A stretch of DNA of 64,000 bases, from assembly GCA_964478625.1 (NCBI GenBank), contig CAYZJH010000001.1, forward strand, positions 140,588-204,587, given 5' to 3'. The position numbers were made by a program, and so were the translations under genes. Positions 815 to 25,004 of the stretch are shown piece after piece. The stretch is from an uncultured Desulfobacteraceae bacterium. Its GTDB lineage: Bacteria; Desulfobacterota; Desulfobacteria; Desulfobacterales; SKZT01. Numbering within the stretch: position 1 is the stretch's first letter; each line of letters opens with the position of its first letter. The notes below the pieces were generated by a model that saw only the letters and a program-made list of their open reading frames with translations, ran no database searches and was not told the origin of the DNA.

Positions 815-837
815 TCAGCATTTTGAGGAGATAAGAC

Positions 838-2031: not shown

Positions 2032-2063
2032 GACTCAATTCAGCATTCATGCGGAGCTATAAA

Positions 2064-2936: not shown

Positions 2937-3383
2937 ATGGAATACATCAAAATACGATTTGGGGATGAATTTGATAAAATTGGTTCTAGATTCGAAGAGA
3001 CTCTAGAGGATATGTTTCGTTCGATGGGCCCCATTTTCAGCCTTGCGGACCGCACCTGGAGACCTTCCATGGACATTTATGAATCCGAAGATGACATCAT
3101 TGTCCTTGCGGAAGTAGCAGGTGTCAGCAAGGACTGTCTTGATATTGAAGTTAACAGCAAAGCGATCAAAATATCCGGAAATCGAATTGAAGTTCCTAAA
3201 AGGGACAGCTGTAAATACCGTCTGGCAGAAATTCAGTATGGATTTTTTGAACGAATCCTGATCCTGCCTGCCTATATTGATCCGGATAATGTGGATGCTT
3301 CTTTCCAAGATGGCTTTTTAAAAATTCGATTAATCAAAAAGCCAATTGAAAGAACAATCCAGATCCCCATTGCGGATGAATAA
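2937..3383 (+). CDS. Small heat-shock protein, Hsp20/alpha-crystallin family
   Basis: 148 aa with AGGAG RBS. Alpha-crystallin-domain pattern: RPSMDIYESEDDIIVLAEVAGVSKDCLDIEV ... YGFFERILILP ... DASFQDGFLKIRL. Confidence 0.85.
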   Translation: MEYIKIRFGDEFDKIGSRFEETLEDMFRSMGPIFSLADRTWRPSMDIYESEDDIIVLAEVAGVSKDCLDIEVNSKAIKISGNRIEVPKRDSCKYRLAEIQYGFFERILILPAYIDPDNVDASFQDGFLKIRLIKKPIERTIQIPIADE

Positions 3384-3445
3384 AATTGCCCACTCTCTTC
3401 AATCGGCCTTTTACGCTTACATCAAAATTCATTATGGAGGTTTGA

Positions 3446-5797: not shown

Positions 5798-5848
5798 TCA
5801 ATGATGTTAAACATTTTCGCCGATATTTTAGGGTAAAACTATTTTTTT

Positions 5849-6622: not shown

Positions 6623-6661
6623 CCTTTTCCAATAAAATTTCTCCAATTCCGGAAATTAAAC

Positions 6662-7246
6662 TTGCTTAAAAAAGTCGTTTTTATAGATCGGGATGGGGTA
6701 ATCAATTATGACTCATCAAACTACATCAAAAGTCTTGATGAATTTATTCTGATTCCCGGAAGTCTCTCGGCAATTTCCAAACTATCTCAATATGGATATA
6801 CAGTATTTGTCATAACCAATCAATCTGCTATTGCCAGAAAATTTGCAGATATTAACACTATCAACACCATGCACCAATATTTGAGGGAGTCCGTTCATAA
6901 TGCCGGTGGCCATATTCACAAAATCTATTTTTGCCCTCATCATCCCAATGAAAATTGCCGGTGCCGAAAGCCCCAAACAGGCATGATTGATCAAGCTAAA
7001 GCGGAAAACGATATCGATATAAGCTCTTCGGTCATGATTGGGGATAAACCCAGTGATATAGAATGTGCCAAAAGAGCGGGATGCAAAGGGTCTTATCTTG
7101 TCATGACCGGTCTTAAGAACCCATTGAAAGATGATAAAATGAACCTGTTTCATGGTTTTTATCAAATAGCTAAAACCCTTTTTCATGCGGTAGATTTACT
7201 AATCTATGAGGACAAAACAAAAAACAAATATCCTTACTGTTCTTGA
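6662..7246 (+). CDS. gmhB: D,D-heptose 1,7-bisphosphate phosphatase-like HAD hydrolase
   Basis: TTG start. HAD motif I FIDRDGVIN. GmhB zinc-binding signature CPHHPNENCRCRKPQTGM. Motif MIGDKPSDIECA. Confidence 0.75.
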   Translation: MLKKVVFIDRDGVINYDSSNYIKSLDEFILIPGSLSAISKLSQYGYTVFVITNQSAIARKFADINTINTMHQYLRESVHNAGGHIHKIYFCPHHPNENCRCRKPQTGMIDQAKAENDIDISSSVMIGDKPSDIECAKRAGCKGSYLVMTGLKNPLKDDKMNLFHGFYQIAKTLFHAVDLLIYEDKTKNKYPYCS

Positions 7247-9461
7247 GGGGGAACTTGAGAAAATCACATATCATAACCAACAAACCCATTACACTATTGC
7301 ACGCGTGAAAACACCTGCAGTTGCCCGACCCGTGACAATAGTTGGCTTTTTGGGTGGTATACAACCTGGAGAGACTTTGAAAATCACGGGTGTTTGGGAG
7401 ACACACCCAAAATATGGACAACAGCTTCGGGTCAAATCCTACGAAGTAAAATTACCCGCAACCATTCAGGGAATTAGAAAATATTTTAAATCCGGTATAA
7501 TTAAGGGGGTAGGCCCTCAGCTGGCCGACCGTCTGGTCGATCATTTCGGTGACAAAACCCTTCAAATTATAGAGCATGATTCCCATAGACTAATGGAAAT
7601 CGATGGAATTGGAAAGCGCAAGGCTGCTTTTATAATAGACGCATGGAACAAACACCATATCATGAGAGGGCTCATGCGTTTTTTGCAGGATATGGGTATA
7701 AAAACAGCTCACGGCGCAAAAATTTTTCATACCTACGGGGATCTTTCCCTTAAAATACTTCAGGAAAATCCATATCGACTTGCCGACGACATTCCTGACA
7801 TTGGTTTCCAAATTGCCGATACCATTGCCCGAAAAATGGGAACTGCGGATGATGACCCAGTGCGTGTCAAAGCCTGTATACTGCATGGTCTTGATAAATA
7901 TGCCGATGAGGGTCACACGTTTGCTTTTAAACACCATCTAACAATTCGTTGCGAGCATCTGTTTAAACTATATCAGGACGCGATAAAAGATGGAATCCAA
8001 AGTCTTTCGGAAACCGGTGAGCTTGTCCTGGATAAAATCGTTCCGGAAAAGGAAGATATTCGACATTGCGAAGGAATTGATGATACTGCCGTTTACAAGA
8101 ATTTTATTTACAAGGCCGAATCCGGTATTGCAACAAGAATTGCAGCACTTCTGTCTGCTCCCATTGATTCAAAAGAGGTAGAGATTGACTTTATTCAAAC
8201 TCAAATTCACAATCAACTATCCATTAATTTATCCCCGGAACAACTGGAAATTTTAAATGATTTGTTTTCTCAAAAGGTTGCGATTATAACCGGTGGTCCC
8301 GGAACCGGAAAAACCACTTTGATACGTTCGATAGCAGCAATATTTAAGGCCATGAACAAAATTGTCCGCTTGGGGGCACCTACTGGAAGAGCCGCCAAAA
8401 AACTTGCAGAAGTCACCCATGAAAAAGCAGCCACCATTCACAGACTTTTAGGCTATACTTTATCTAATGCAAAGCCTGAACAATCCTTTGTGGGAAGAGA
8501 TCGAGACAATCCGCTTGAAGCCGATGTCATTATTATTGATGAAGCGTCCATGATTGATACCCTACTGATGTATCATCTTTTAAATGCGATTTCACCTTCC
8601 TCACAGTTGGTTCTAGTGGGTGATGTTTTTCAGCTTCCTTCAGTTGGACCCGGTACCGTATTATCAGATATGATTCGGTCTCAGGCAATCCGGGTTTATT
8701 ATCTTAATACAATTTTCCGGCAGTCCCAAAAAAGTCAGATTGTCGTCAATGCCCACAAGGTGCGCAATGGGGAGTCTTTTCAACTGACTCCTTTTGATGA
8801 AAATGAACCCATCACCGACTTTTATTTTCTTGAGAAAGAAACACCCAAAAGTATCGCTGAATCCATTGTATCCTTATGTACTCAAATTCTGCCTTCTCGT
8901 TTTTCTCTCAATCCGGTTTCAGACATTCAGGTACTCACACCGATGCATAAAGGAGATGCCGGTACCATCAATCTAAATTTAATGCTTCAGGAAAAAATTA
9001 ATCAATCATCCATTCAGATGGAAACATTGGGAAATACTTTCAAACTTGGTGACAAAGTAATGCACCTCAAAAATAATTACCAAAAAGAAGTTTTTAACGG
9101 AGATATAGGAACTATTCATTCAATGGATTTGGACAGAAAAAGACTTTCAGTGGACTATGACGAACGAATCGTAGAATATGAATATGCCGAAACAGATGAG
9201 CTGTCTCTGGCATACGCCATATCTATTCATAAATCGCAAGGATCCGAATATCCCGCTGTAATCTTACCGCTGATGACTCAGCACTATATGCTTTTGCAGC
9301 GAAATGTTCTTTATACAGCAATAACAAGGGCTATAAACCTAGTAATTATAGTCGGAACTCAAAAAGCATTGCATATCGCTCTCAGCAATGATAACCCGCA
9401 GAAAAGACTCTCTGGTCTATCTTTTCGAATTAGTCAAAATGTGAAATGTTTATTGTCATAA
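7206..9461 (+). CDS. recD2: RecD2-type (RecD-like) SF1B ATP-dependent DNA helicase
   Basis: 751 aa. HhH region (GIGKRKAAFII), Walker A GGPGTGKTT, Walker B IIIDEASM, LVGDVFQLPSVGPG, and C-terminal AISIHKSQGSEY...LYTAITRA. Overlaps the gmhB 3' end by 41 nt. Confidence 0.85.
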   Translation: MRTKQKTNILTVLEGELEKITYHNQQTHYTIARVKTPAVARPVTIVGFLGGIQPGETLKITGVWETHPKYGQQLRVKSYEVKLPATIQGIRKYFKSGIIKGVGPQLADRLVDHFGDKTLQIIEHDSHRLMEIDGIGKRKAAFIIDAWNKHHIMRGLMRFLQDMGIKTAHGAKIFHTYGDLSLKILQENPYRLADDIPDIGFQIADTIARKMGTADDDPVRVKACILHGLDKYADEGHTFAFKHHLTIRCEHLFKLYQDAIKDGIQSLSETGELVLDKIVPEKEDIRHCEGIDDTAVYKNFIYKAESGIATRIAALLSAPIDSKEVEIDFIQTQIHNQLSINLSPEQLEILNDLFSQKVAIITGGPGTGKTTLIRSIAAIFKAMNKIVRLGAPTGRAAKKLAEVTHEKAATIHRLLGYTLSNAKPEQSFVGRDRDNPLEADVIIIDEASMIDTLLMYHLLNAISPSSQLVLVGDVFQLPSVGPGTVLSDMIRSQAIRVYYLNTIFRQSQKSQIVVNAHKVRNGESFQLTPFDENEPITDFYFLEKETPKSIAESIVSLCTQILPSRFSLNPVSDIQVLTPMHKGDAGTINLNLMLQEKINQSSIQMETLGNTFKLGDKVMHLKNNYQKEVFNGDIGTIHSMDLDRKRLSVDYDERIVEYEYAETDELSLAYAISIHKSQGSEYPAVILPLMTQHYMLLQRNVLYTAITRAINLVIIVGTQKALHIALSNDNPQKRLSGLSFRISQNVKCLLS

Positions 9462-9473
9462 AAGGATTCAGTT

Positions 9474-10535
9474 ATGCCTAACTCAATTATCACTGCCACC
9501 GGCAGTTATATTCCACCACGAAAAATAAGCAACGACTATTTCCTAAAGCACGATTTTTACGGTGACGATGGAAATAAACTTGAAAGAACCAACACGGAGA
9601 TCATAAAAAAACTTCTCGAAATAACCGGAATTAAAGAACGGCGCTATGTTACCGATGATCAGACTACATCGGATATTGCAAGCCTTGCCGCGGAGAAGGC
9701 ATTGGAAAGTTATGACAGGGAAAGCCTTGATTACATTATTGTCGCACAAAATTTGGGAGAAGTTAGAGCCGAAAATAATCGGGTGGACATTGTCCCCACC
9801 ATTGCATCCAGAGTTAAACATAAACTTGGAATCAAAAATCCCTATACCGTATGCTTTGATCTTCCGTTCGGATGCCCCGGATGGCTCCAGGGAGCAATTG
9901 TGGCCGATTATTTCATCAAATCAGGTGATGCAAAAAGGATCCTTGTCATAGGGGCAGAAGTTCTATCGAGAGTTTCAGACCCTCACGATATTGACAGCAT
10001 GATATTTGCTGATGGTGCCGGCGCAACTCTAATTGAAGCCACCGATGATCCATCAGGAATCATGTGCCATGTCACACGCTCTGATACCTCTAAAGAAGCC
10101 TACCTGTTGCGAATGGGATCCTCATATAACCCAGATCGCAACGGGAATGATCTTTTCATAAAAATGGATGGCCATCTCATATACAAATATGCTGTTCGCA
10201 CAGTACCCATTGTTATCAAAAAAAGCCTGGATAAAGCAGGAATTGATCTGAAAGATGTTAATAAGTTTTTAATTCACCAGGCAAACGAGAAAATGGATTT
10301 GGCTATTGTTAAAAGACTTTTCAAATTATACGACATAGAAGAAATAGATCCAGATATTATGCCCATGATTATATGCTGGTCAGGAAACAGTTCAGTGGCG
10401 ACACTTCCTACCCTTTTAGATTTAATTCAAAGAGGAAAGCTTAAAAATCACAGGTTAAATTCAGGAGATATTATTGTTTTTGCATCGGTGGGTGCAGGGA
10501 TGAATGTTAATTCGATGATTTATCGTGTTCCCTGA
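9474..10535 (+). CDS. 3-oxoacyl-ACP synthase III (FabH-like KAS III family)
   Basis: 353 aa. N-terminus ITATGSYIPPRKISND. Catalytic Cys context FGCPGWLQG, His in FLIHQAN, Asn in SGNSSVATLP. Confidence 0.8.
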   Translation: MPNSIITATGSYIPPRKISNDYFLKHDFYGDDGNKLERTNTEIIKKLLEITGIKERRYVTDDQTTSDIASLAAEKALESYDRESLDYIIVAQNLGEVRAENNRVDIVPTIASRVKHKLGIKNPYTVCFDLPFGCPGWLQGAIVADYFIKSGDAKRILVIGAEVLSRVSDPHDIDSMIFADGAGATLIEATDDPSGIMCHVTRSDTSKEAYLLRMGSSYNPDRNGNDLFIKMDGHLIYKYAVRTVPIVIKKSLDKAGIDLKDVNKFLIHQANEKMDLAIVKRLFKLYDIEEIDPDIMPMIICWSGNSSVATLPTLLDLIQRGKLKNHRLNSGDIIVFASVGAGMNVNSMIYRVP

Positions 10536-10622
10536 TCTTTTTAAGTATATGAGCGGTGTTGTCTTAAACCGTGGCGACCAGAAATTACCTATTTGATTGG
10601 AATTCCTTTGATTTTAAAAGCC

Positions 10623-10677
10623 AAAAAGGCTTTGTTGCCATTTTAGTTTTAGTAAATCCGGCAAGCAAAGCCTTTTT
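10623..10677. terminator. Bidirectional rho-independent terminator between the convergent fabH-like gene and the rnf operon
   Basis: AAAAAGGCTTTGTTGCC, about 20 nt loop, GGCAAGCAAAGCCTTTTT. This is a 12-bp stem with one bulge, flanked by an A5 run on one side and a T5 run on the other. Confidence 0.6.
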
Positions 10678-10695
10678 AACAAATGTTTCTATACC

Positions 10696-12786
10696 CTACG
10701 CAGCTGCATCCTTGTTATAACAAATCCTGCAACAGGCCAGACATCGTTGAGCTTCCCGCAAAGCGTCATCTTCCTGAAGTACCAAATCGGCCTCATCAAA
10801 AGTTTTTATCCGTTCATAAACTGGTAACTCAGGCATTTCTGCGCGTTTCTTCTTTTCAACACCAGGAACTTTTTCAAACAGAGATTCCTGGATATGCTTT
10901 TTGAAAAGTGCAGTTTCAGGCGCTTTAACCTCTTCGCCCGATAAATACTGATGTATCGACCTGGCGGCTCTTCGCCCTCCCCCAATAGCTTCAACTACAA
11001 GGGAGGCACCGGTAGCAGCATCTCCTGCAGTGAAAATATAGGGAATGTTTGTCTGAAGTGTGATCGGATCAACCGCATCAATCGTACTCCAGCGGGTAAT
11101 GGAAAGTTCCTGAATTCTTTTTGTGTCAGCATTAATGAAAGAGACATCCGGACCTTGTCCGATGGCTGTTATCAGCATATCGCATTCCATAAGGGTTTCA
11201 GAGCCTTCCACAGGTACAGGTCGCCTTCTGCCGCTGGCATCTGGTTCTCCCAGTTCCATTTTTAAATATTCGAGGTGGGTCACATGCCCGTTTTCATCTC
11301 CGATAACTCTGGTGGGGGCTGCAAGAAATGTAAATTTTACGCCTTCATGTTCTGCTGCCACAATTTCAACCTCATTGGCAGGCATTTCTTTCCGGGTACG
11401 GCGGTAGACTATATTGACTTCTTCTGCTCCCAATCTTACCAGAGTTCTGACACAGTCGATGGCTGTATTTCCGCCCCCGATAACAATGCATTTTTTTCCA
11501 ATGGGAATTTGCTCATGGCTTTTTCCCTGCTGGGCCGTAGCAAATCGGGTCAGAAAATTAATGCCAGTATAGCATCCTTTGAGATCTTCACCCTCAACTT
11601 TCAAATTATAGTCTTTCCAGGCACCCACTCCGAGAAATATGGCATCATAGCCGGCAGCCACCAGAGACCCTATGGTAAAATCTTTTCCAAGTTTAACGTT
11701 GGTTTTGGAATTGATACCCAAATTGAGTATACCATCAATTTCCCATTTCAACACCTTTTTGGGCAAACGATATTCGGGTATTCCGTAACGGATCATACCT
11801 CCCAATTCAGGGTTGTCGTCAAAAATGGTCACCGAATGACCAAGCCTTCGAAGGAAAAACGCACACGTCAGACCCGCAGGGCCACCTCCAATAACAGCCA
11901 CTTTTTTTCCGGTATCCGGAGCAACCGATATGTGCAGTCTCTTTCCCGTATTCATTTCATAATCAGCAACAAAGCGTTTCAGCTGATTAATTGAAACTGC
12001 TTCATCCTCAATACCCCTCCGACAAAAGTCTTCACAGGGATGCGGGCATACTCTTCCACAGGATAAAAGCAAAGGATTTCTTTCTCTGATGGTGTGTACA
12101 GCCCCTTCGTAATCTCCTTCTCTGATCTGTGAAATATACCTTGGGATATCAATTTCGGCAGGGCAGGTCTGTTGGCACGGGCCAAGGGCATCCCCTTCCT
12201 TGTTGAGTTCAAGGAGCCGTTCCGACATGGTTCTGATTTTAATGATGCTTTTTGGGCATACTTTCTGGCATGCTCCACATCCGACACACTTTTCCTCAAT
12301 GACAACAGGGAATCCCTCCGCCCCCATTTCAATGGCATCAAAAGCACAAGCCCTAATACAGTCGCCCATTCCCAAACAACCAATGGAACAGACCCTTTTC
12401 CCATCGTATAAGGCTGCCATTGCACTGCAGCTTTTAACACCCATGTAGTAGAACTTGTCATCAGCCCTAAAGCCACCCGTACAAGTATTCATAGACCGAA
12501 GCGGCTCTGCAGTTCCGGGATCAAGTCCCATAACCGCTGCGACATTGGCGGCACCTTCGGGTCCTGCAACAATGCATACGCTCGGGGGAGCCTCACCTTT
12601 GACAACGGCAGCGGCAGCCTGTGAACACCCGGCATAGCCGCACCCACCACAATTTGCTCCGGCCATTTTGTCTTCAACTTCGGCAATTCTGGGATCTTCA
12701 TACACATAGAATGCCTTGCTGGCGGCGCTAAGAACGCTACCGCAAGATACCCCCAATCCCAACATAAATAGAACGGCTTCTATCAC
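10696..12786 (-). CDS. rnfB: RnfB (membrane anchor, Fe-S and 2x[4Fe-4S] ferredoxin domains) fused to a GltD/NfnB-type NAD(P)H-dependent FAD oxidoreductase module
   Basis: GTG start with AAGGAGG RBS, 696 aa. Residues about 1-190 are RnfB-like: TM helix, FYVYEDPRIAEVEDKMAGANCGGCGYAGC, CSIGCLGMGDCIRAC, CVGCGACQKVCP. Residues about 200-620 are GltD-like: CQQTCPAEIDIP...SCGRVCPHPCEDFC, KKVAVIGGGPAGL, GIPEYRLPK, KKCIVIGGGNTAIDC, IFTAGDA. The C-terminal tail carries RCLACCRIC. Confidence 0.85.
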   Translation of the reverse strand: MIEAVLFMLGLGVSCGSVLSAASKAFYVYEDPRIAEVEDKMAGANCGGCGYAGCSQAAAAVVKGEAPPSVCIVAGPEGAANVAAVMGLDPGTAEPLRSMNTCTGGFRADDKFYYMGVKSCSAMAALYDGKRVCSIGCLGMGDCIRACAFDAIEMGAEGFPVVIEEKCVGCGACQKVCPKSIIKIRTMSERLLELNKEGDALGPCQQTCPAEIDIPRYISQIREGDYEGAVHTIRERNPLLLSCGRVCPHPCEDFCRRGIEDEAVSINQLKRFVADYEMNTGKRLHISVAPDTGKKVAVIGGGPAGLTCAFFLRRLGHSVTIFDDNPELGGMIRYGIPEYRLPKKVLKWEIDGILNLGINSKTNVKLGKDFTIGSLVAAGYDAIFLGVGAWKDYNLKVEGEDLKGCYTGINFLTRFATAQQGKSHEQIPIGKKCIVIGGGNTAIDCVRTLVRLGAEEVNIVYRRTRKEMPANEVEIVAAEHEGVKFTFLAAPTRVIGDENGHVTHLEYLKMELGEPDASGRRRPVPVEGSETLMECDMLITAIGQGPDVSFINADTKRIQELSITRWSTIDAVDPITLQTNIPYIFTAGDAATGASLVVEAIGGGRRAARSIHQYLSGEEVKAPETALFKKHIQESLFEKVPGVEKKKRAEMPELPVYERIKTFDEADLVLQEDDALREAQRCLACCRICYNKDAAA

Positions 12787-12803
12787 AACGACCTCCTTAA
12801 AAA

Positions 12804-13379
12804 TTAAGCCATGCCTTTAAATGCGAAAAATGTCAGGGATAGTACACCCGCGGTCACAAGACCTATGGATGTGTCCTGAAGCGGTTTTGGAACTCTTCCA
12901 AGTATAACACGTTCCCGGACTCCTGCAAAGAGAATCAGTGCAAAGCCAAAACCTGTTGCATAGGACATTGCGGAAATCAGAGCCTGAATAAACCCGTATT
13001 CTTCATTGATATTGATCAGGCATACACCCAGTACCGCACAGTTGGTCGTGATTAGAGGGAGAAAAATTCCCAGACCTGCATACAATGCAGGGATGCTCTT
13101 TTTAAGAAACATTTCTACAAACTGGACCAGAGAGGCAATAACCAGAATAAACGCTATGGTTCTCAAATATTGCAAGCCGAATTTGGTCAAGAAGAAAGTA
13201 TTAACAACCCAGGTAATCATCCCGGCCATCGTCAAAACGAATACAACAGCAAATGCCATACCTATGGCAGTTTCCATTTTTTTGGTCGTTCCGAGGAAAG
13301 GACATGCACCTAAATATTGTCCCAGAATAATGTTGTTGATAAAGATACAGCTGATGATAAGGACAATGTAATCGCCCAT
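12804..13379 (-). CDS. rnfA: Rnf complex subunit A
   Basis: 191-aa polytopic membrane protein with typical RnfA/NqrE sequence (NNIILGQYLGACPFLG, LPLITTNCAVLG). Sits between rnfE and rnfB. Confidence 0.9.
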   Translation of the reverse strand: MGDYIVLIISCIFINNIILGQYLGACPFLGTTKKMETAIGMAFAVVFVLTMAGMITWVVNTFFLTKFGLQYLRTIAFILVIASLVQFVEMFLKKSIPALYAGLGIFLPLITTNCAVLGVCLININEEYGFIQALISAMSYATGFGFALILFAGVRERVILGRVPKPLQDTSIGLVTAGVLSLTFFAFKGMA

Positions 13380-13388
13380 GATACTCTC

Positions 13389-13982
13389 CTATTTTTTCCC
13401 AATGAAATTCATAACACAGAGCATAAGGCCAAGTCCGATAAATGCTCCGGGAGCTTCAACCATAAACGTAAACGGTTCGAAGGAAGGTCCGGTAACATCG
13501 ATTCCCAGTATCGTACCGTTGCCCAACAACTCTCTTACTGCGCCCAATGAACCCAGGGCTAACGTAAAACCGATACCAATACCAAGACCATCGGCTATTG
13601 AGGGTACGACACTTCTCTTAAATGCGAAAGCTTCGCTCCTCCCGAGCACGATACAGTTAACCACGATAAGCGGTATGAAAATACCCAGCGCGAGAAACAG
13701 CGGATAGGCAAATGCCTGCATCAGCAATTCCACTACTGTAACAAATGTAGCAATGATGACAATAAAACAGGCAATTCTGACTTTAGCAGGTATGATATTT
13801 CTCATCAAAGACACCAGGGTATTGGCGCAAACCAGCACGAAGGTGGTGGCAATACCCATACCGAGCCCATTTTCAACCGATTTGGTTACAGCAAGAGTGG
13901 GGCACAGACCCAGAACGAGCCTGAACGGTGGTATCTCTTCCCACAACCCTTTAACAAATTCCTGAGTTAATGTTTTAGCCAT
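13389..13982 (-). CDS. rnfE: Rnf complex subunit E
   Basis: 197 aa with RnfE/NqrD-like sequence (NPPFRLVLGLCPTLAVT-type motif PPFRLVLGLCPTLAVTKS, IPLIVVNCIVLGR). Confidence 0.9.
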   Translation of the reverse strand: MAKTLTQEFVKGLWEEIPPFRLVLGLCPTLAVTKSVENGLGMGIATTFVLVCANTLVSLMRNIIPAKVRIACFIVIIATFVTVVELLMQAFAYPLFLALGIFIPLIVVNCIVLGRSEAFAFKRSVVPSIADGLGIGIGFTLALGSLGAVRELLGNGTILGIDVTGPSFEPFTFMVEAPGAFIGLGLMLCVMNFIGKK

Positions 13983-14010
13983 ATTTCTCTCCCTGGAATA
14001 GTTATCGCCT

Positions 14011-14598
14011 TTAGAAGGTTTTTATTTTATCTAAAATCTGGTCCTTATTATCCATATATATTTTGGCGGCCTCATTTGCGGCATTGCACACAGCCCGAGA
14101 GGTAATCGTCGATCCGCTGATGGTGTTGATCGACCCGCCATCATTTGTGACCTTTATCGGACTGTCAATACTCTTGCCCTTAAACTGTGAAACAAAAGAG
14201 GGATCTTCTTTGGCTTTGGCTCCCATTCCGGGAGTTTCCGCGTGGGTGGTGACCGAAACACCATAGATCGTATCATTTTCCACATTAATCGCCACCATCA
14301 CCCCGACATCACCACCATACCCTTTTCCAAACCCTTCCAAAGCTACCGTTTTGGCCGTGCCATCGAACTTACCGATAAAAAAATCCATTTCGGTTTCACC
14401 AATGGCCATTTTAAATCGGTCGGCCACAGGGTCATTGGAAGTACCCACCAGAATTTCTTTAATGGCCGGACCTTTTACAAAATTAAGCTGTGCTACTTCT
14501 ATTCTCTCTTTGGTCCCGTTTCGGATTGCAGCCAGAAGACCACCGGAAAATGAAGCCAGCACTGTCAAGACAATAACCATTTTCATCATGTCACGCAT
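14011..14598 (-). CDS. rnfG: Rnf complex subunit G (FMN-binding)
   Basis: ORF track starts at 14640. The ATG at 14598 directly follows the rnfD stop and precedes the single TM helix (MKMVIVLTVLASF). FMN_bind-type domain with flavinylation-type motif ISGSTITS. Confidence 0.85.
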   Translation of the reverse strand: MRDMMKMVIVLTVLASFSGGLLAAIRNGTKERIEVAQLNFVKGPAIKEILVGTSNDPVADRFKMAIGETEMDFFIGKFDGTAKTVALEGFGKGYGGDVGVMVAINVENDTIYGVSVTTHAETPGMGAKAKEDPSFVSQFKGKSIDSPIKVTNDGGSINTISGSTITSRAVCNAANEAAKIYMDNKDQILDKIKTF

Positions 14599-14599
14599 A

Positions 14600-15559
14600 T
14601 CAATCCACCTTTCCAAGTGCTTTGGGTCTAATTCTTTCAAAAATCGGGCCCAGCAAATTTATGAGCAGAATCGCAAACAAAACACCATCCACATACGCTC
14701 CGATGTTTCGGATCAATACGGTCATAAATCCTCCTACCAGACCGTAAATCAGCATGGGAATAAAGTTGACAGGCGAAGACGAATCCTCAGGGGCCAAGAA
14801 AAAAGCACCAATGAGTGTGTATCCGGTAAGCAGATGGATCATGGGCCCGGCATATTGCTCAGGAGCAACAATATTGAAAATCAATGCGGTGATAAAAATA
14901 CCGGCGAGGAAAGACACAGAAATTTCCCATCTGATAATGCCTCTGATGATCAGGTAGATTCCACCGACAATAAGTCCGAACCCGAAGGTTGACCCTATGC
15001 CGCCGGTTTGTTTTGCCATGAGCAGATCACCCGGGGTAAATCCCTGGACACCTGAGACACCGAATGATTTCAGTGCGGTCAGCGGATAAATGGCATCAAA
15101 TCCAAAATCATAATTGACCAACGCGACATTAAAATCAAAATAATCTCTCCAACCGACGAAAAGAACCAGTGCACCAAGAACAACAGGATTAAAGGGATTG
15201 CTTCCGATGCCGCCGAATATTTGTTGTCCCACAATCACGGCAAAAAATGTACCAGTAATGACAAACCACCATGGAACAGTCGCCGGAAGTAGCATGGCAA
15301 AAATCAAACCAATAACGGCCGCGTTTCCATCTCCGATGGTTTTTTCACTTTTCCGAAGAACATTAATTGCCAGTTCCCACAAAATGGCTGACGACACTGA
15401 CAGGGCTACCACACCGACCGCCGGAATTCCATACTGGTAAAGCCCCATGAGCACAGCCGGCAATGCTGCCAGCAAAATGTTATAATTTCGACTGGGAACC
15501 CGACTGCCGTCATGAATAAATGGAGCATGTGAGACGATAAGTTTTTTCTGACTATACAT
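14600..15559 (-). CDS. rnfD: Rnf complex subunit D-like, apparently lacking the flavinylated Thr
   Basis: 319-aa polytopic protein. RnfD/NqrB hallmarks HAPFIH, GGIGSNPFNP, IRWEI, FFLAPE(D), YVDGVLFAILL. The expected [ST]xAT-PL site reads DAIYPLTALK. Confidence 0.85.
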   Translation of the reverse strand: MYSQKKLIVSHAPFIHDGSRVPSRNYNILLAALPAVLMGLYQYGIPAVGVVALSVSSAILWELAINVLRKSEKTIGDGNAAVIGLIFAMLLPATVPWWFVITGTFFAVIVGQQIFGGIGSNPFNPVVLGALVLFVGWRDYFDFNVALVNYDFGFDAIYPLTALKSFGVSGVQGFTPGDLLMAKQTGGIGSTFGFGLIVGGIYLIIRGIIRWEISVSFLAGIFITALIFNIVAPEQYAGPMIHLLTGYTLIGAFFLAPEDSSSPVNFIPMLIYGLVGGFMTVLIRNIGAYVDGVLFAILLINLLGPIFERIRPKALGKVD

Positions 15560-16826
15560 ACTCTGCCTCCGCTAATCTTATCCGATCGAGTTCATATTTC
15601 GCCAATCTAATATATTGAAAGATCGGAATCCTGGCTACACAAACAAAACTGCAAAGACCACAATCGATGCAGGAATTTAAATCATAATTGCTTTCCGCCT
15701 CTTCATAGTGACCTGGTTCCAAAAGCCGAACAAGCATGTTGACCTGCATTTTTGCCGGACAGATCCTGACACATTCTCCACAGTTAACACAGGGATAATC
15801 GGATACAAATGGAACATTGTCCTTGTCCTGAACCATGATCGCATTGGTCTCGGGAAGAATCGGATGATCTTCGGAATAAATCGCCGACCCGGTCAATGGT
15901 CCTCCAAAAATCACCTGATCCTGATCGTTAATCGTGATATCGCATGCTTTAAATACCTCAGCAACAGGCGTTCCGATTTTAACTGATATCAAAGCAGTGC
16001 TTCCATCTTTTTTAATCAGCGTCAGGATTTTATCCGCGGGAATTTTACCCGTGCTGATTGCAGTTCCGATTGAAGCTACCGCTTCTGCAGATATAAAACA
16101 GTATCCCAAATTCTCGGTTTTTTTGCCGGCCGGGACTACATTTCCAAACAAATTTTTAAGAATCATTTTAGGATTTGCAGCAGGATAACTGCTGCCGACT
16201 GTTTTTACCTCAATACCGGCTGCAGCGGCGACCGCCGCAAGCCTTTCGGGTGCCACCAATACGATCGAATTAATACCTGTAAACTTGCCAATAGCCGCAA
16301 TACCTGATTTGAGCGCCTTCAATCGAGATTGTACAACATACTGGTTTGTCGTAATCCATATATCTTCATCCATGCCGTTAACAACGATTGTGTGGATGTC
16401 GAATTCGGGGTTTTTGAAATTTTTAAGCGGGGGGCAACCCGGCACACATGACAGGTACTTGATCGCATTTTCCAGCGAGATTTCCTTGGCAATTTCGGAA
16501 AACTCCTCATCGAGCTCTTCCTCCTTTGCCGTATCCATCGTAATCGCGGTGTAGTTTCGGCCAAAATCCCCTGCCCAACCGGACAAGTCGGAGACTGTGC
16601 CGGTTACCGGGGAGGCTGCATATACATCTTTAGCGGTAGAAACCAATTGCCCGGTTTTTATCTGATCCCCCTTTTTCAGTTCGTCAATGCCTTTCTGCCC
16701 GGGGCTTGCCAGCAGCAATTTCACCCGGCTGGGCTTGGAAACTTCTACCAGGGCTGGATCTAAATCTGTAAGGACAGTATAATCAATCCGGGGCTTAACC
16801 AGACCAATGAAAGATTTTTTAATCAT
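15552..16826 (-). CDS. rnfC: RnfC-like subunit, with divergent NADH/FMN-site motifs and both 4Fe-4S motifs retained
   Basis: 424 aa. RnfC N-terminal barrel (SPVTGTVSDL), SLBB-like region, CVNCGECVRICP and CIDCGLCSFVCV. The positions of canonical GGAGFP and ECEPY read SCVPGCPPL and NGMDEDIW. Confidence 0.8.
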   Translation of the reverse strand: MIKKSFIGLVKPRIDYTVLTDLDPALVEVSKPSRVKLLLASPGQKGIDELKKGDQIKTGQLVSTAKDVYAASPVTGTVSDLSGWAGDFGRNYTAITMDTAKEEELDEEFSEIAKEISLENAIKYLSCVPGCPPLKNFKNPEFDIHTIVVNGMDEDIWITTNQYVVQSRLKALKSGIAAIGKFTGINSIVLVAPERLAAVAAAAGIEVKTVGSSYPAANPKMILKNLFGNVVPAGKKTENLGYCFISAEAVASIGTAISTGKIPADKILTLIKKDGSTALISVKIGTPVAEVFKACDITINDQDQVIFGGPLTGSAIYSEDHPILPETNAIMVQDKDNVPFVSDYPCVNCGECVRICPAKMQVNMLVRLLEPGHYEEAESNYDLNSCIDCGLCSFVCVARIPIFQYIRLAKYELDRIRLAEAEYV

Positions 16827-16889
16827 AGCCTAACCTTTTTGTTGTTTCGCCGAATCAGGTTAAAAGTCTTAAAATCTGAAGTCCAAAGA

Positions 16890-17384
16890 TTATTTCAGAT
16901 GGCATCCACTACAATCCTGAGGACCGGCTTCGTTTTCCGTATGGCATCCGATGCACTGTCCATGAAACGCATCTGTCTGCATCATTGCCGACATTTCATC
17001 CACGTTATCGTGACAATCGTGGCAACTCTCTGCTGCATAATAGCGTATGCCATTTTTAGTCTCGACTTCGAGCCCTTCATGATCTTCATACTCGTGACAG
17101 CTCAAGCAGGATTCTGCAAATCCTCCTTCCACATTGATGTGACATTCTGCACAAGATGATGTTTCTCCACCATGATGGTGGCAACTATAGCAATCTATGC
17201 TGTAACCGGCTTCTGACATGTGGGTTTTGTGCGTAAACAAAACATTTCCCGCCACACCTTCATACGCAATCCTCAAGGGTTCATCAGGTGCCTTGGCGGA
17301 AAAAGCCGTATAGCTTATCACACCCACAAGGAACAGAATGATTGCCACACCATAGGCCATCTGTAGTTCTTTTTTTGAAGTCAT
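16890..17384 (-). CDS. Small membrane-anchored or secreted hexaheme cytochrome c, first gene of the rnf operon
   Basis: 164 aa. N-terminal hydrophobic signal or anchor (AIILFLVGVISYTAFSAKA). Six CxxCH motifs: CYSCH, CAECH, CLSCH, CHDCH, CIGCH, CSGCH. Confidence 0.85.
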   Translation of the reverse strand: MTSKKELQMAYGVAIILFLVGVISYTAFSAKAPDEPLRIAYEGVAGNVLFTHKTHMSEAGYSIDCYSCHHHGGETSSCAECHINVEGGFAESCLSCHEYEDHEGLEVETKNGIRYYAAESCHDCHDNVDEMSAMMQTDAFHGQCIGCHTENEAGPQDCSGCHLK

Positions 17385-19314: not shown

Positions 19315-20550
19315 TTAGTCAGCTCTTCTTCTCAAAAACGTCGGAATGTCCAGGTCGTTATTGTCGATGACAAGACCTTTGTAATTTTTATATGGTGAAC
19401 CTTCTGAACCCTCCGCACCCCTTTGATTGCGGACAAATGTCGGTACATCATAATTAACCGCCCTTTCCAGGTCTGCAGGTGTAAGGTCACGAACTTTACC
19501 TCTAATTTTTCTGTCTCTGAATCTTTCGGGCATGGCTGAATCCGCATCCGTTCCAATACCCGTGGCAATAACCGTCACACGAATTTCATCACCCATGGAA
19601 TCATCCACAGCCGTACCCCATATGATATCCGCATCCTCACCCACTTCCCGGTAAATGCGGTCGGATGCCTGGGTCATCTCTTCCATTGTCAGTGAACTTG
19701 ACGAAGTAATATTCATCAGAACGCCTTTGGCTCCGGCAACAGAAATGTCTTCAAGAAGCGGATGTGAAATCGCACGTTCAGCCGCCTCAATAGCCCTGTT
19801 TTCTCCAGTAGCCACACCGATCCCCATCAAAGCGAGCCCTGCTTTCGACATGGTCTCTTTGACATCGGCAAAATCCAGATTAATTTGTCCGGGGAGCATT
19901 ATTAAGTCAGTGATCCCCTTAACCGAGTGAAGCAAAATTTCATCGGCTTTCTTAAACATGGCCAACATAGTGGAATCTTTTTCAGAAATTCCGCGAAGCC
20001 GGTCATTTGGAATGGTAATTACGGTATCAGCCACTTCCTTGAGAGCATAAATTCCATCCTCAGCCTGGCGCGACCTTTTTTTGCCCTCAAACGTAAAGGG
20101 TTTGGTCACTACCGCCACTGTGAGGATTTTTAATTCTCTGCAAATTTCAGCAATAACAGGCGCAGCACCCGTACCAGTACCCCCACCAAAACCTGCTGCG
20201 ATGAAAACCATATGGCTCCCTGACAGAGCATTTCTTATGGCTTCTTCATTTTCCAAAGCTGACTCACGACCTTTAGCAGGATTATTTCCAGCCCCCAAGC
20301 CCTCGGTCAGCCTCTCCCCCAACTGTATCTTCATTGGAGCTCTTGACTTTTGCAGCGCTTGCGCATCGGTATTTGCGGCGATAAAGTCAACACCTCTTAG
20401 GTCACTGTCAATCATATTGTCGATTGCGTTTCCACCACCTCCGCCGACCCCGATAACCTTGATTCGGGCTTGGACATCCCTTTGCCGTGTATGAGCACCA
20501 ACATACGTAAAAGATGACATATCCCCCCCTCCATTGTCGTTAATTGTCAT
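19315..20550 (-). CDS. ftsZ: Cell division GTPase FtsZ
   Basis: IKVIGVGGGGGNAIDNM and GGGTGTGAAPVIA tubulin signature. C-terminal DLDIPTFLRR peptide. I prefer the ATG at 20550, preceded by AAGGAGGAGGG. The ORF-track start at 20589 is the alternative. Confidence 0.95.
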   Translation of the reverse strand: MTINDNGGGDMSSFTYVGAHTRQRDVQARIKVIGVGGGGGNAIDNMIDSDLRGVDFIAANTDAQALQKSRAPMKIQLGERLTEGLGAGNNPAKGRESALENEEAIRNALSGSHMVFIAAGFGGGTGTGAAPVIAEICRELKILTVAVVTKPFTFEGKKRSRQAEDGIYALKEVADTVITIPNDRLRGISEKDSTMLAMFKKADEILLHSVKGITDLIMLPGQINLDFADVKETMSKAGLALMGIGVATGENRAIEAAERAISHPLLEDISVAGAKGVLMNITSSSSLTMEEMTQASDRIYREVGEDADIIWGTAVDDSMGDEIRVTVIATGIGTDADSAMPERFRDRKIRGKVRDLTPADLERAVNYDVPTFVRNQRGAEGSEGSPYKNYKGLVIDNNDLDIPTFLRRRAD

Positions 20551-20605
20551 AGTTCCCTCCTCCTTGGTTTGTTGCATCCCATTGTTCATTCTATTTTAAT
20601 AGGGT

Positions 20606-21832
20606 TTAAATAATTTCCCTGAACCATTTTTTCATTCTCGCCACCAACCTCGAAAAAATGTTTGCATCCCTGATTCTGAATTTCTGGGGATTATGATTTT
20701 TAGCCCCATACAAAAGTAACCCGACACCCGTTGCATACATGGGGTTATTCACCACATCCACTAGTCCGTTAATTCCCCGTGGCTGCCCCAGCCTTGCCGG
20801 TAAGTGAAAAACCGATTCCGCAACATCGGTAATTCCGTCTAACAGTGCAGAACCGCCCGTGATCACAACACCCGATGGAATCAGGTTTTCAACCCCCGCC
20901 CGATATATCTCTCTTCTTATCAGAGAAAATATCTCTTCGACTCTGGGTTCCATTATTTCTCCTAGAATTTGTCTAGGCAGCTTCCGGGGAGGTCTTCCAC
21001 CCATACCTGGGACCTCGATGTTTTCATCGCCTTTTATCTTCGATGCAAGGGCAGTACCATATTCCTTTTTGATCTTTTCAGCCTCTGCAATGGGTGCACG
21101 AAGTCCGATTGCAATATCATTGGTTAAATTATGCCCCCCCAAAGATAATACAAATGTATGATGGATATTTTTCCCTGAGAATATGGCCAGATCACTGGTG
21201 CCTCCACCCACATCAATCAGGGCCGTACCTAATTCTTTTTCTTCTTCCGTAAGAACCGCATCACCTGATGCCAGGGACTCTAGCACAATGTCACAGACAT
21301 CAAGTCCGGCACGGTTGGCACATTTTACAATATTATGGGCCGATGTTACCGCCCCTGTTACGATATGAATTTTGGCTTCCAGCCGCACTCCGGCCATCCC
21401 GATTGGATTGTTGATGCCGGCTTGATCATCCACTATGAATTCCTGGGGCAACACATGAATCAATTCACGATCCATTGGAATCGCAACAGCACGCGCGGCT
21501 TCAATGACACGGTCAACATCCTGCTGGGTCACTTCACGCCCTTTGATAGCGATAATACCGTGGCTGTTAAAACCTGTGATATGTCCGCCGGCAATTCCGG
21601 CATAAACCGATGATATTTCACATCCGGCCATCAATTCGGCTTCTTCAACGGCCTTCTTGATAGAATCTACTGTTGCTTCAATATTGACCACTACCCCTTT
21701 TCTCAATCCTATGGATGGATGAGTTCCAATGCCGATAATGTTGATATCACTTGGACTGACTTCACCCACAACCGCACAGATTTTTGTGGTACCTATATCA
21801 AGGCCGACGATGATATTTTCTTGTCCCTTCAA
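20606..21832 (-). CDS. ftsA: Cell division protein FtsA
   Basis: 408 aa. Actin-fold motifs VGLDIGTTKICAVVGE and IDVGGGTSDLAIF. Sits between ftsQ and ftsZ. Confidence 0.95.
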   Translation of the reverse strand: MKGQENIIVGLDIGTTKICAVVGEVSPSDINIIGIGTHPSIGLRKGVVVNIEATVDSIKKAVEEAELMAGCEISSVYAGIAGGHITGFNSHGIIAIKGREVTQQDVDRVIEAARAVAIPMDRELIHVLPQEFIVDDQAGINNPIGMAGVRLEAKIHIVTGAVTSAHNIVKCANRAGLDVCDIVLESLASGDAVLTEEEKELGTALIDVGGGTSDLAIFSGKNIHHTFVLSLGGHNLTNDIAIGLRAPIAEAEKIKKEYGTALASKIKGDENIEVPGMGGRPPRKLPRQILGEIMEPRVEEIFSLIRREIYRAGVENLIPSGVVITGGSALLDGITDVAESVFHLPARLGQPRGINGLVDVVNNPMYATGVGLLLYGAKNHNPQKFRIRDANIFSRLVARMKKWFREII

Positions 21833-21834
21833 CT

Positions 21835-24996: not shown

Positions 24997-25004
24997 CGCC
25001 CCGT

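Follow-up and report, generated by a model that had tools for sequence, protein, structure and literature searches.

The seven-gene operon at positions 10,696 to 17,384 of the window (the whole 64,000-nucleotide stretch analysed, from an uncultured Desulfobacteraceae bacterium) is recognisable from its sequence as the Desulfobacteraceae 'Rnf2', or Desulfobacula toluolica Tol2-type, complex, a real and well conserved one. [quoted passage not shown] The 'Tol2-type'/'Rnf2' architecture was published in 2016 and 2025 (PMC5109826; PMC11887813 supplement) and, in Desulfovibrionaceae, in 2024 (PMC11434368), and the authors of these papers already proposed essentially the same route, with electrons passing to the cytochrome; the composition, for which a first-pass annotation of this DNA could name no characterised Rnf, is thus already on record. 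Our analysis adds the likeness of the RnfB module to StnC and NfnA (Bfu), as well as the loss of the RnfD threonine and its co-variation with RnfC degeneration.

The operon comprises a cytochrome c gene, rnfC-D-G-E-A and an rnfB fusion, all on the minus strand, with content and coordinates as annotated earlier:

16890..17384, minus strand: hexaheme cytochrome c, 164 aa, six CxxCH, the operon's first gene
15552..16826, minus strand: RnfC-like subunit, 424 aa, degenerate NADH/FMN site, two [4Fe-4S] motifs kept
16344..16454, minus strand: RnfC region where GxGGAxFPT and ECEPY are expected, reading LSCVPGCPPLKNFK...VVNGMDEDIWITTN
15624..15791, minus strand: the two RnfC CxxCxxCxxxC(P) [4Fe-4S] motifs, from motif conservation
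14600..15559, minus strand: RnfD, membrane subunit (PF03116, 2e-84), lacking the FMN-attachment threonine
15086..15088, minus strand: RnfD Tyr158 codon, aligned with C. tetanomorphum Thr153
14011..14640, minus strand: RnfG, periplasmic FMN-binding subunit (NCBIfam RnfG_DVU2794, Pfam FMN_bind)
14107..14118, minus strand: RnfG SGST flavinylation motif
13389..13982, minus strand: RnfE, half of the [2Fe-2S]-bearing ion-translocating core
12804..13379, minus strand: RnfA, the other half of that core
10696..12786, minus strand: RnfB fusion, 696 aa
12202..12786, minus strand: RnfB proper within the fusion, aa 1-195, comprising a TM anchor, an Fe-S domain (PF04060) and a ferredoxin domain with 2x[4Fe-4S]
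10696..12192, minus strand: GltD/NfnB/StnC-type module, aa 199-696, from Pfam, PRK12771 and PDB matches

The genes are tightly packed (spacings in gene order of 63, -8, overlap, 28, 9 and 17 nt), and RnfG probably starts at Met15 (14598), where the family model begins. No reading frame is broken, and the seven assignments are all backed by Pfam and NCBIfam profiles, with PDB homologues for RnfC, D, E, A and B among the six homologous subunits encoded together (RnfC, D, G, E, A and B). The order rnfC-D-G-E-A-B behind a hexaheme cytochrome c gene, as originally described, is thus upheld by coordinates, the six CxxCH motifs and profiles alike. No same-strand gene lies downstream of rnfB, where the next gene is a convergent FabH-like one (9474-10535).

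RnfB is a composite of two alignable parts. The first, residues 1-191, matches C. tetanomorphum RnfB (7zc6_B residues 7-195, E 7e-46), and the second, residues ~180-690, aligns with GltD/NfnB-type modules at E-values of 1e-98 to 4e-128, bearing out the FAD/NAD(P)H module of about 500 aa seen at first pass. PDB matches of the module are 9n5u_A (4e-128), 9bov_A (2e-124), 8oh5_C (StnC; 8e-113), 5jca_L (5e-103) and 4ylf_B (4e-98); Pfam finds Fer4_20, Pyr_redox_2 and NAD_binding domains, and PRK12771 scores 507 bits. The module contains Fer4_20 (2x[4Fe-4S]), an FAD fold (GGGPAG) and an NAD(P)H fold (GGGNTA, with VYRRT), and its C-terminal extension ends in an invariant CxxCCxxC. The three fold motifs and the Fer4_20 cysteines are invariant or near-invariant among family RnfB sequences, and each of the 14 cysteines C46-C177 is present in 81/81. 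A longer signature, VYRR(T/S)xxEMPA, is common to the module, NfnA (Bfu) and StnC and is near-invariant in the family. By these comparisons the closest counterparts of the module are the NADPH-input modules of StnC and NfnA (Bfu), which do not bifurcate and in which electrons run linearly from NADPH through FAD to two [4Fe-4S] clusters; by homology we infer NADPH rather than NADH as its donor.

RnfC and RnfD, by contrast with classical Rnf, do not retain their cofactor sites when aligned to solved Rnf and Nqr structures, in agreement with the first-pass annotation. In alignments of RnfC to 8ahx_C, 7zc6_C and 9eri_C, VPGCPPL stands in place of GMGGATFPT and NGMDEDIW in place of NAAECEPY, and GxGGAxFPT and ECEPY are both missing in 61/61 family members. 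The protein scores 176 bits against TIGR01945 rnfC, under the cut-off of 246, and weak traces of a NuoF-like fold remain (Complex1_51K 37 bits, NQRA_2nd 30 bits); on this showing the NADH/FMN site is degenerate and the domain not deleted. Both CxxCxxCxxxCP motifs are kept in 61/61 family members and at further loci (L081, L083-L087), and the presence of both [4Fe-4S] sites in every operon, in an RnfC without its flavin site, argues for a redox role outside our main model. In RnfD, alignments to PDB chains (including NqrB) place Tyr158 opposite C. tetanomorphum Thr153, which carries FMN (PMC9588780). This column reads Y53 F5 D3 H2 Q1 in family RnfD, the motif state of the window occurs in at least 61/64, and none of the family RnfD sequences has the canonical FMN-threonine motif. 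The FMN contacts N90, R130, E185 and S284 (the roles of Arg130, Glu185 and Ser284 in C. tetanomorphum likewise from PMC9588780) have given way to hydrophobic or small residues; D248, the riboflavin/Na+ position, is kept as E/D and N124 as N/H. The loss of the pyridine-nucleotide site from RnfC and of the flavin relay from RnfD is thus supported, though RnfD could hold flavin non-covalently, given its acidic residue at the riboflavin/Na+ position. We found no literature report of the loss of the RnfD threonine and its neighbouring contacts; the Rnf2 papers call the subunits other than those altered 'very similar' to classical Rnf.

The remaining membrane machinery is closely conserved. RnfE aligns gap-free with A. 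woodii RnfE at 52% identity, its R69, L105, V108, N109, C110 and E117 corresponding to R67, L103, V106, N107, C108 and E115, while RnfA is 54% identical to its A. woodii counterpart and conserves C26, E89, P108, T111, T112 and C114. Relative to the Na+-pathway residues listed in PMC11889175, RnfA differs only at Y105 (F106) and D64 (T), and the A. woodii residues tested by mutagenesis (RnfE R67, L103, V106 and E115; RnfA T110) are conserved; the same study argued against a part for RnfD in Na+ transport (PMC11889175). RnfG scores 243 bits against RnfG_DVU2794, over the cut-off of 205, and keeps SGST, as noted at first pass, a motif found as [SG]G[AS]T in 64/64 family members. Together these data support an intact RnfA/E core and RnfG flavin site. 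The cytochrome, with six CxxCH, an N-terminal hydrophobic anchor or signal and matches to Pfam Cytochrom_CIII (3e-09) and to TmcA/c7-like NCBIfam profiles, is proposed to be a small membrane-anchored or periplasmic hexaheme protein of the c3/c7 family and the putative acceptor of RnfG-FMN electrons. Its homologues upstream of rnfC in ~60 related loci have 3 to 7 hemes, most commonly 5.

The arrangement recurs widely. The RnfB fusion has >120 full-length homologues at 73-94% identity, some on megabase contigs, and 254 relatives in a one-genome-per-species set, of which 80 loci were fetched and ~60 had flanks long enough to read the operon. The order cyt-C-D-G-E-A-B, with the same motif states, is repeated in ~60 Desulfobacterales species genomes, and the multiheme cytochrome gene is always co-encoded there, as the first gene; the closest loci belong to Desulfobacteraceae/Desulfobacterales MAGs (68-92% identity; best genome match 92%, a Desulfobacteraceae MAG). 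Published proteomics has detected Rnf2 subunits, and Rnf2 is constitutive and abundant in six Desulfobacteraceae strains and part of the family core genome. We therefore virtually discount an artefact of assembly or an operon in decay: frames are intact, cofactor cysteines invariant and full-length homologues number in the hundreds, Rnf2 subunits occur in proteomes, and nothing speaks in its favour.

The fusion, the degenerate RnfC and the Thr-less RnfD, which the first-pass annotation had presented as a co-occurring set, do occur together in this operon and its family, but the RnfC and RnfD traits are also found with an ordinary small RnfB (L084, L085, L087), which places them before the fusion and makes them independent of it. 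They occur without an adjacent cytochrome as well (L081, L083, L087), and two of these loci (L081, L083) carry the fusion, so that at gene-cluster level the cytochrome link is not obligatory. In each operon examined that has a Thr-less RnfD (the window, the loci of the Desulfobacterales family, L081 and L083-L087), RnfC is degenerate, while the two examined that have the threonine (L088, L089) show canonical GxGGAxFPT and ECEPY/F. Judged from these loci, loss of the RnfD threonine and degeneration of RnfC go together across a wide clade of Desulfobacterota Rnf, and the fusion was added later, in a clade where the C/D arm had degenerated before. L087 has a true NqrF architecture (Fer2, FAD_binding_6, NAD_binding_1).

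With the C and D sites lost, the RnfB module complete, RnfA/E and RnfG intact and a cytochrome co-encoded, the simplest reading is a route NAD(P)H -> FAD -> RnfB -> RnfA/E -> RnfG -> cytochrome c. The earlier suggestion that the pyridine-nucleotide site had moved from the C to the B side stands as far as its absence from RnfC and the completeness of the RnfB module go, and the route drawn from it remains a prediction. In our model NADPH would reduce the FAD of the module, and the RnfB Fe-S chain would hand single electrons to the membrane [2Fe-2S] of RnfA/E, whose reduction would drive Na+ export after the A. woodii model. Electrons would continue to the periplasmic RnfG FMN and exit at cytochrome c, which may supply the periplasmic cytochrome/Qrc/menaquinone network serving sulfate reduction, with RnfC and RnfD acting mainly as scaffold. 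The identity of RnfA/E with A. woodii (52-54%), with cysteines and mutagenesis-tested residues kept, argues that the pump is retained; the RnfG motif in 64/64 supports exit at RnfG, and the Rnf of M. acetivorans is a precedent for an Rnf that reduces a co-transcribed multiheme cytochrome c. Besides the kept RnfC clusters, the acidic RnfD residue and the fusions without an adjacent cytochrome, two points count against the model. NADPH has little driving force towards c3-type hemes unless heme potentials are relatively high, and in D. alaskensis, whose Rnf is considered here by fitness data only, the cluster cytochrome dhcA has no fitness phenotype while the rnf genes have one. We found no biochemical test of Rnf2 in the literature, and we infer donor, acceptor, ion and direction of electron flow in Rnf2 alike.

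The reaction is probably reversible, as Rnf complexes are, and the same machine might work physiologically in reverse, with hydrogenase, formate dehydrogenase or Qrc supplying electrons to a periplasmic cytochrome c that reduces RnfG, and the Na+/H+ gradient driving electrons inward to NADPH or reduced ferredoxin. D. alaskensis requires its rnf genes on H2 or formate plus sulfate, conditions that release electrons on the periplasmic side, as this direction would predict; we nevertheless consider it unlikely, since Rnf2 is constitutive on organic substrates, Desulfobacteraceae often lack or barely form hydrogenases, and complete oxidisers must move cytoplasmic reducing equivalents out of the cell interior. 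Rather unlikely, too, is a ferredoxin:NAD(P)+ oxidoreductase with its ends swapped, in which ferredoxin, as low-potential donor, would dock at the RnfC [4Fe-4S] pair and electrons pass via RnfD, RnfG and RnfA/E to the RnfB FAD and NADP+, leaving the cytochrome as a side branch. The invariant RnfC Fe-S motifs, the acidic residue retained at the RnfD riboflavin site, the fusion without adjacent cytochrome (L081, L083) and the silent dhcA mutant would all fit such a path, but loss of the FMN threonine and four further FMN contacts in RnfD removes the RnfG-FMN/riboflavin relay it would need (PMC9588780), and the cytochrome is always the first gene in the Desulfobacterales family.

The confurcating or transhydrogenase-like input offered at first pass is disfavoured, and we keep it as a very improbable option. 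Here FAD would split the NADPH pair, one electron going downhill through RnfB, RnfA/E and RnfG to cytochrome c and the other uphill to ferredoxin, possibly over the orphan RnfC clusters or the C-terminal CxxCCxxC as a second Fe-S branch; the reverse confurcation is equally conceivable. Such a scheme would give a reason both for the kept RnfC clusters and for the additional Cys4 motif, which is invariant, and NfnB/NfnL, with a homologous bifurcating FAD, is a close relative (5jca_L, 4ylf_B). The operon, however, encodes no NfnA/NfnS-like [2Fe-2S]/FAD partner, and the closest solved relatives, StnC and NfnA (Bfu), are NADPH-specific, non-bifurcating inputs, so a plain NADPH input is favoured.

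Among known systems, the closest is the published Rnf2, from which we find no architectural difference apart from adding the loss of the RnfD threonine. Its large RnfB with a pyridine-nucleotide oxidoreductase domain (~700 aa; 696 aa here), its RnfC without a recognisable NADH:ubiquinone-oxidoreductase/FMN site (here a weak remaining Complex1_51K similarity, 37 bits) and its c3-type cluster cytochrome underlie our identification, and the order cyt-CDGEAB and the Desulfobacteraceae/Desulfobacterales origin are likewise shared. The module aligns end to end with StnC, NfnA (Bfu-type NfnABC), NfnB and NfnL, the alignment running through the C-terminal extension as far as the 'RCLxC' motif, and conserves their FAD fold, NADPH fold and both [4Fe-4S] sites. 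Those modules are joined to NuoG/FdhF-like domains or paired with NfnA/NfnS as soluble transhydrogenases, whereas here the module sits on a membrane-anchored RnfB.

Classical Rnf (A. woodii, C. tetanomorphum, A. vinelandii) shares the six homologous subunits, the RnfA/E core, the RnfG flavin site and the RnfB anchor with its proximal clusters. Its NAD+-side arm runs RnfD-FMN -> riboflavin -> RnfC Fe-S -> RnfC-FMN -> NAD+, and it is the RnfC NADH/FMN and RnfD covalent FMN sites that are missing here, while an FAD/NADPH module replaces the distal RnfB ferredoxin domains and a cytochrome c is added. The logic of pyridine-nucleotide input through a flavoprotein on the RnfB/NqrF side resembles that of Na+-NQR (NqrA-F), where the RnfC homologue NqrA also lacks a nucleotide site and the NqrD/E (RnfE/A) [2Fe-2S] core and NqrC/RnfG FMN are kept. 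In contrast, the input module of Na+-NQR is an FNR-type NqrF rather than GltD/NfnB-type, NqrB has the covalent FMN threonine where RnfD has Tyr158, NqrA lacks the Fe-S clusters whose motifs RnfC keeps, and the acceptor is quinone rather than the cytochrome c predicted here. The Na+-translocating ferredoxin:cytochrome c/methanophenazine Rnf of M. acetivorans (MmcA-Rnf) also has a multiheme cytochrome c gene heading rnfCDGEAB, the two cytochromes being likened by operon position. It uses no NAD(P), at RnfC or elsewhere, and reduces its co-transcribed cytochrome, for which RnfG-FMN is the proposed donor. It differs in being archaeal, in an extra membrane protein after rnfB (MA0665) that is absent here, and in a plain poly-ferredoxin RnfB fed by ferredoxin and lacking the FAD module; the NAD(P)H module of the window's operon argues for a different donor.

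The rnf operon under study (10696–17384, minus strand) consists of seven closely spaced genes, with successive gaps of 63 and −8 nt, an overlap, and then 28, 9 and 17 nt. All seven assignments are supported by Pfam and NCBIfam.

Genes of the rnf operon
16890–17384, minus strand: cytochrome c, 164 aa
15552–16826, minus strand: RnfC-like protein, 424 aa
14600–15559, minus strand: RnfD, 319 aa
14011–14640, minus strand: RnfG, 209 aa
13389–13982, minus strand: RnfE, 197 aa
12804–13379, minus strand: RnfA, 191 aa
10696–12786, minus strand: RnfB fusion, 696 aa

The cytochrome carries six CxxCH motifs, with a hydrophobic segment at its N-terminus. Since the RnfG family model starts at Met15, 14598 is the probable RnfG start. 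A convergent FabH-like gene borders the operon downstream; upstream lie a radical-SAM gene and, directly beyond it, a complete dcw cell-division and cell-wall cluster (FtsZ, FtsA ... RsmH; 19315–35842, minus strand), an ordinary chromosomal context. Promoter and terminator scans of the operon gave counts close to shuffle expectation and hence no usable signal. Elsewhere in the window, a trio of genes at 36532–40446 (plus strand) encodes a 451-aa pyridine-nucleotide-disulfide oxidoreductase, an ORF of 204 aa and a 634-aa member of the Prismane/CO-dehydrogenase family (613 bits). The trio resembles a CooS-type CO dehydrogenase or hybrid-cluster module that has an NAD(P)H-linked partner of its own. 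A 473-aa protein at 62179–63600 (plus strand) joins a CarS-like/CTP-transferase membrane domain to a calcineurin-like metallophosphoesterase domain.

The first-pass annotation had described three departures from canonical Rnf in this operon, and our alignments bear it out in every detail. The first is the fusion of RnfB to a GltD/NfnB-type FAD/NAD(P)H module. RnfB residues 1–191, spanning the transmembrane anchor, the PF04060 cluster domain and one 2x[4Fe-4S] domain, align with residues 7–195 of C. tetanomorphum RnfB (E 7e-46), and residues ~180–690 align with GltD/NfnB-type proteins. The added part comprises Fer4_20 and two nucleotide-binding folds, one for FAD (GGGPAG) and one for NAD(P)H (GGGNTA ... 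VYRRTRKEMPA).

Solved relatives of the RnfB module
9n5u_A: NfnA of Bfu-type NfnABC, E 4e-128
9bov_A: 'Molybdopterin oxidoreductase', E 2e-124
8oh5_C: StnC of the Sporomusa Stn transhydrogenase, E 8e-113
5jca_L and 4ylf_B: NfnL/NfnB, E 5e-103 and 4e-98
2vdc_G: GltD, E 5e-70

With 9n5u_A, 9bov_A and 8oh5_C the alignment includes the C-terminal extension as far as an 'RCLxC' motif, and a VYRR(T/S)xxEMPA segment is common to the module and its StnC/NfnA relatives. The StnC module binds NADPH and FAD, releases electrons singly via two [4Fe-4S] clusters and has 'lost the ability to bifurcate' (PMC10482914); NfnABC, too, has its bifurcation site outside this module (PMC11829005). Because these nearest solved relatives are non-bifurcating at this point, homology makes a plain NADPH:Fe-S input or output the most likely role of the fused module; use of NADH, or bifurcation, is conceivable. 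The Fe-S cysteines of RnfB are all invariant (81/81 sequences), including a CxxCCxxC at the extreme C-terminus (residues 677–696; 10696–10760). This motif aligns with the 'RCLxC' at which the following Fe-S domain of StnC and NfnA opens, and may be an additional metal site.

The other two departures concern flavin and nucleotide binding. Alignment of the RnfC-like subunit to solved RnfC shows that both NADH/FMN motifs are lost (VPGCPPL stands in place of GMGGATFPT, and NGMDEDIW in place of NAAECEPY) and that the two CxxCxxCxxxCP motifs are preserved. Traces of the fold can still be detected (Complex1_51K, 37 bits; NQRA_2nd, 30 bits): the nucleotide site has decayed in a domain that has not itself been deleted. 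In RnfD, Tyr158 aligns with C. tetanomorphum Thr153, the covalent FMN carrier (PMC9588780), and the residues placed around FMN in the same study (Asn90, Arg130, Glu185 and Ser284) are replaced by Leu, Ala, Ser and Leu; Asp248 in the riboflavin/Na+ region is conservatively changed to Glu, and Asn124 is unchanged. RnfG retains its flavinylation site (SGST), again as first described. A deposited V. cholerae NqrB sequence (PDB 9ud3_B) reads 'SGAY' at the FMN-threonine position, the same Thr-to-Tyr swap that is the natural state in the window-type RnfD family; presumably engineered to lack FMN, this variant might be used as a structural stand-in.

The architecture recurs widely. The RnfB fusion has more than 120 full-length homologues (73–94% identity); a one-genome-per-species collection holds 254 relatives, the best 80 of which were fetched and all come from Desulfobacterales-type MAGs. 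The order cytochrome-C-D-G-E-A-B is found in ~60 loci where the contig permits. Within this family the RnfC nucleotide motifs are absent and the [4Fe-4S] motifs present in 61/61 members, the former threonine column of RnfD holds Tyr in 53, Phe in five, Asp in three, His in two and Gln in one (three 'PSTTDP' sequences being ambiguous), and the RnfG flavinylation motif is present in 64/64. A cytochrome is always encoded, with three to seven hemes and most commonly five. The full-length homologues, the conserved loci and the cysteine invariance rule out an assembly artefact as the source of the fusion for all practical purposes. A classical rnf cluster, sought as an internal control in the 80 related loci, was present in none. 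Three loci (L045, L048 and L075) have the fusion gene without rnf neighbours in the fetched flank, and in another (L074, 10001–18567) it lies upstream of cyt-C-D-G-E-A, not at the end.

We also searched RnfD against 1.84 billion representative proteins. None of the ~38 representatives nearest the window RnfD has the canonical Dxx[ST]xA-T-PL motif, and it is present in almost all of those further away (Thr in 96/150). Seven loci with threonine-less RnfD differ in cytochrome and RnfB type.

Related loci with threonine-less RnfD
L081, bacterium ADurb.Bin236 MAG: no adjacent cytochrome; RnfB fused
L083, Deltaproteobacteria MAG: no adjacent cytochrome; RnfB fused
L084, Deltaproteobacteria MAG: tetraheme c3; RnfB small, 268 aa
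L085, metagenome contig: c3 (RnfD-RnfG fused); RnfB small
L086, Pseudodesulfovibrio: decaheme cytochrome; RnfB fused
L087, Desulfonatronovibrio hydrogenovorans: no cytochrome; RnfB small
L090, Pseudodesulfovibrio: cytochrome present (254 aa); RnfB fused

RnfC of L081 and L083–L087 (6/6 aligned) lacks GxGGAxFPT and ECEPY and has its Fe-S motifs; that of L090 (369 aa) has a weak Fer4_10 as its sole Pfam match. Two loci with threonine-bearing RnfD (L088 and L089) have canonical RnfC motifs. Across a broad clade of Desulfobacterota Rnf, loss of the RnfD flavin site thus co-varies with degeneration of RnfC, whatever the RnfB type, and this appears to go beyond published accounts. A single co-evolved package of all three traits was rejected, as the RnfC and RnfD losses also occur with small RnfB (L084, L085 and L087). 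Two homologue searches seeded with Desulfovibrionales-like RnfD returned Pseudodesulfovibrio, Desulfonatronovibrio and MAGs in the top 120, with D. vulgaris and D. alaskensis not among them. Among the 120 relatives listed for L084 the threonine column reads Pro 50, Thr 30, Ala 20, Ser 14 and Tyr 6, the Thr mostly in non-canonical contexts; for the Pseudodesulfovibrio type it reads Ala 89, Tyr 13, Ser 8, Asn 8 and Asp 2, with Thr in none of the 120 listed.

RnfG of the window and of the degenerate-RnfC/RnfD operons within L081–L090 finds its best model in the NCBIfam 'exception' RnfG_DVU2794 (186–302 bits, compared with 86–128 bits for RnfG of canonical operons). These proteins thus form a subfamily of their own, perhaps adapted to a cytochrome partner, and D. 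vulgaris-type Rnf, for which this family score is the sole link, probably belongs to the same clade. Vesicle attempts at ferredoxin:NAD+-coupled ion transport in D. alaskensis that 'have been unsuccessful' (PMC4841214) fit the picture of a wider degenerate clade.

Individual loci show further variation. In L085, RnfD and RnfG form one 507-aa fusion protein (8001–9524), and the operon includes a c3 cytochrome; its small rnfB is encoded divergently, and a pyruvate:ferredoxin oxidoreductase lies next to it. L087 carries a complete nqrB-F/apbE cluster (1–5398) directly upstream of its rnf operon. Pseudodesulfovibrio tunisiensis (CP094380.1, L090) has two threonine-less RnfD genes, P0501 and P0523, and a full cyt-CDGEA-fused-B operon (618–14951) flanked on one side by fumarase, malic enzyme and a dicarboxylate symporter and on the other by pta-ackA, neighbours that hint at a connection with C4-dicarboxylate (NADPH-yielding) metabolism. 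In L081 and L083 the RnfG flavinylation motif ends in Ser, not Thr (TGAS, SGTS).

The first-pass annotation knew of no characterised Rnf of this composition. The composition is in fact published: the operon is a member of the Rnf2 type, described in the D. multivorans genome paper as 'D. toluolica Tol2-type' Rnf whose mode of action 'awaits experimental verification' (PMC5109826). A 2025 study placed Rnf2 in the Desulfobacteraceae core genome and found it formed abundantly and constitutively (PMC11887813), and a 2024 survey reported a terminal 'FAD-dependent oxidoreductase' replacing rnfB in many Desulfovibrionaceae (PMC11434368). The interpretation attached to the finding, reasonable and supported by the sequence, is therefore not new, and the type is biochemically uncharacterised. 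No biochemical characterisation of a sulfate-reducer Rnf was found in the literature from 2022 on, and sulfate reducers are absent from the text of a 2025 RNF/NQR review. The three Rnf2 papers treat the remaining subunits as ordinary, and in the Rnf2 literature we came across no report that RnfD has lost its threonine. The specific likeness of the fused module to non-bifurcating NADPH-input modules also appears to go beyond the published Rnf2 accounts.

The pump core, as judged by comparison with A. woodii, is intact. RnfE shares 52% identity and RnfA 54% with their counterparts, ungapped; the RnfA/E [2Fe-2S] cysteines are conserved, as are R67, L103, V106, N107 and E115 of RnfE and E88, P107, T110 and T111 of RnfA, the only changes at the compared residues being Y105 to F and D64 to T in RnfA. 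In A. woodii, [2Fe-2S] reduction is proposed to drive Na+ translocation via RnfA/E alone, with RnfD argued to be 'only involved in electron transfer' (PMC11889175). Should this model hold, an electron chain cut after RnfG would leave the coupling step untouched.

From the cofactor sites present we infer, with a probability of roughly 0.55, an ion-translocating NADPH:cytochrome c oxidoreductase, along a route similar to that first proposed. Electrons would pass from NADPH through FAD and two [4Fe-4S] clusters to the RnfB clusters, then to the RnfA/E [2Fe-2S] in the ion-coupling step, and on through periplasmic RnfG FMN to the multiheme cytochrome c and the Qrc/menaquinone (and Dsr/Qmo) network, RnfC and RnfD being largely scaffold. 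Against this stand the invariant Fe-S clusters of the flavin-less RnfC, to which the route gives no explained role, fusion operons without an adjacent cytochrome, a D. alaskensis dhcA mutant without phenotype, and the small driving force from NADPH to c3-type hemes.

The same machine might run in reverse, which we consider unlikely. A trans-complex ferredoxin:NADP+ route would run through the RnfC clusters, a reading that we hold to be rather improbable. The same orphan [4Fe-4S] pair, or the C-terminal CxxCCxxC, would take the uphill electron to ferredoxin if the NfnB-like FAD on RnfB split the NADPH electron pair, the other electron going downhill via RnfA/E and RnfG to periplasmic cytochrome c with Na+ pumped. 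Such a bifurcating or confurcating Rnf would be a membrane-bound, ion-coupled bifurcating enzyme of an undescribed kind; the module's nearest solved relatives, non-bifurcating at this point, make it very doubtful.

Desulfobacteraceae carry out a large share of organic carbon oxidation in marine sediments. To our knowledge, the route from cytoplasmic NAD(P)H to the periplasmic cytochrome/menaquinone network feeding sulfate reduction is a long-standing gap, and we know of no measurement of Rnf2 activity by anyone. An ion-pumping NADPH:cytochrome c oxidoreductase would close that gap. In the examined Desulfobacterota clade both RnfC NADH/FMN motifs and the RnfD FMN threonine are missing from the aligned sequences and RnfG matches the RnfG_DVU2794 model, so that the label 'ferredoxin:NAD+ oxidoreductase', routine for sulfate-reducer Rnf, may be wrong for this clade. 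Co-loss in RnfD and RnfC, together with the NADPH-input likeness of the module, yields a sharper, testable hypothesis: that the Rnf complexes of sulfate reducers are something other than ferredoxin:NAD+ oxidoreductases. For current Na+ pumping models, such as that for A. woodii RnfA/E, the clade also provides a natural experiment.

In function, the closest precedent for the proposed mechanism is the M. acetivorans Rnf, which makes no use of NAD(P) and passes electrons to a multiheme cytochrome co-transcribed with it (PMC4023990). In its logic, the complex comes closest to Na+-NQR, where the RnfB/NqrF side is likewise the point of nucleotide entry and NqrA, homologous to RnfC, no longer has a nucleotide site.
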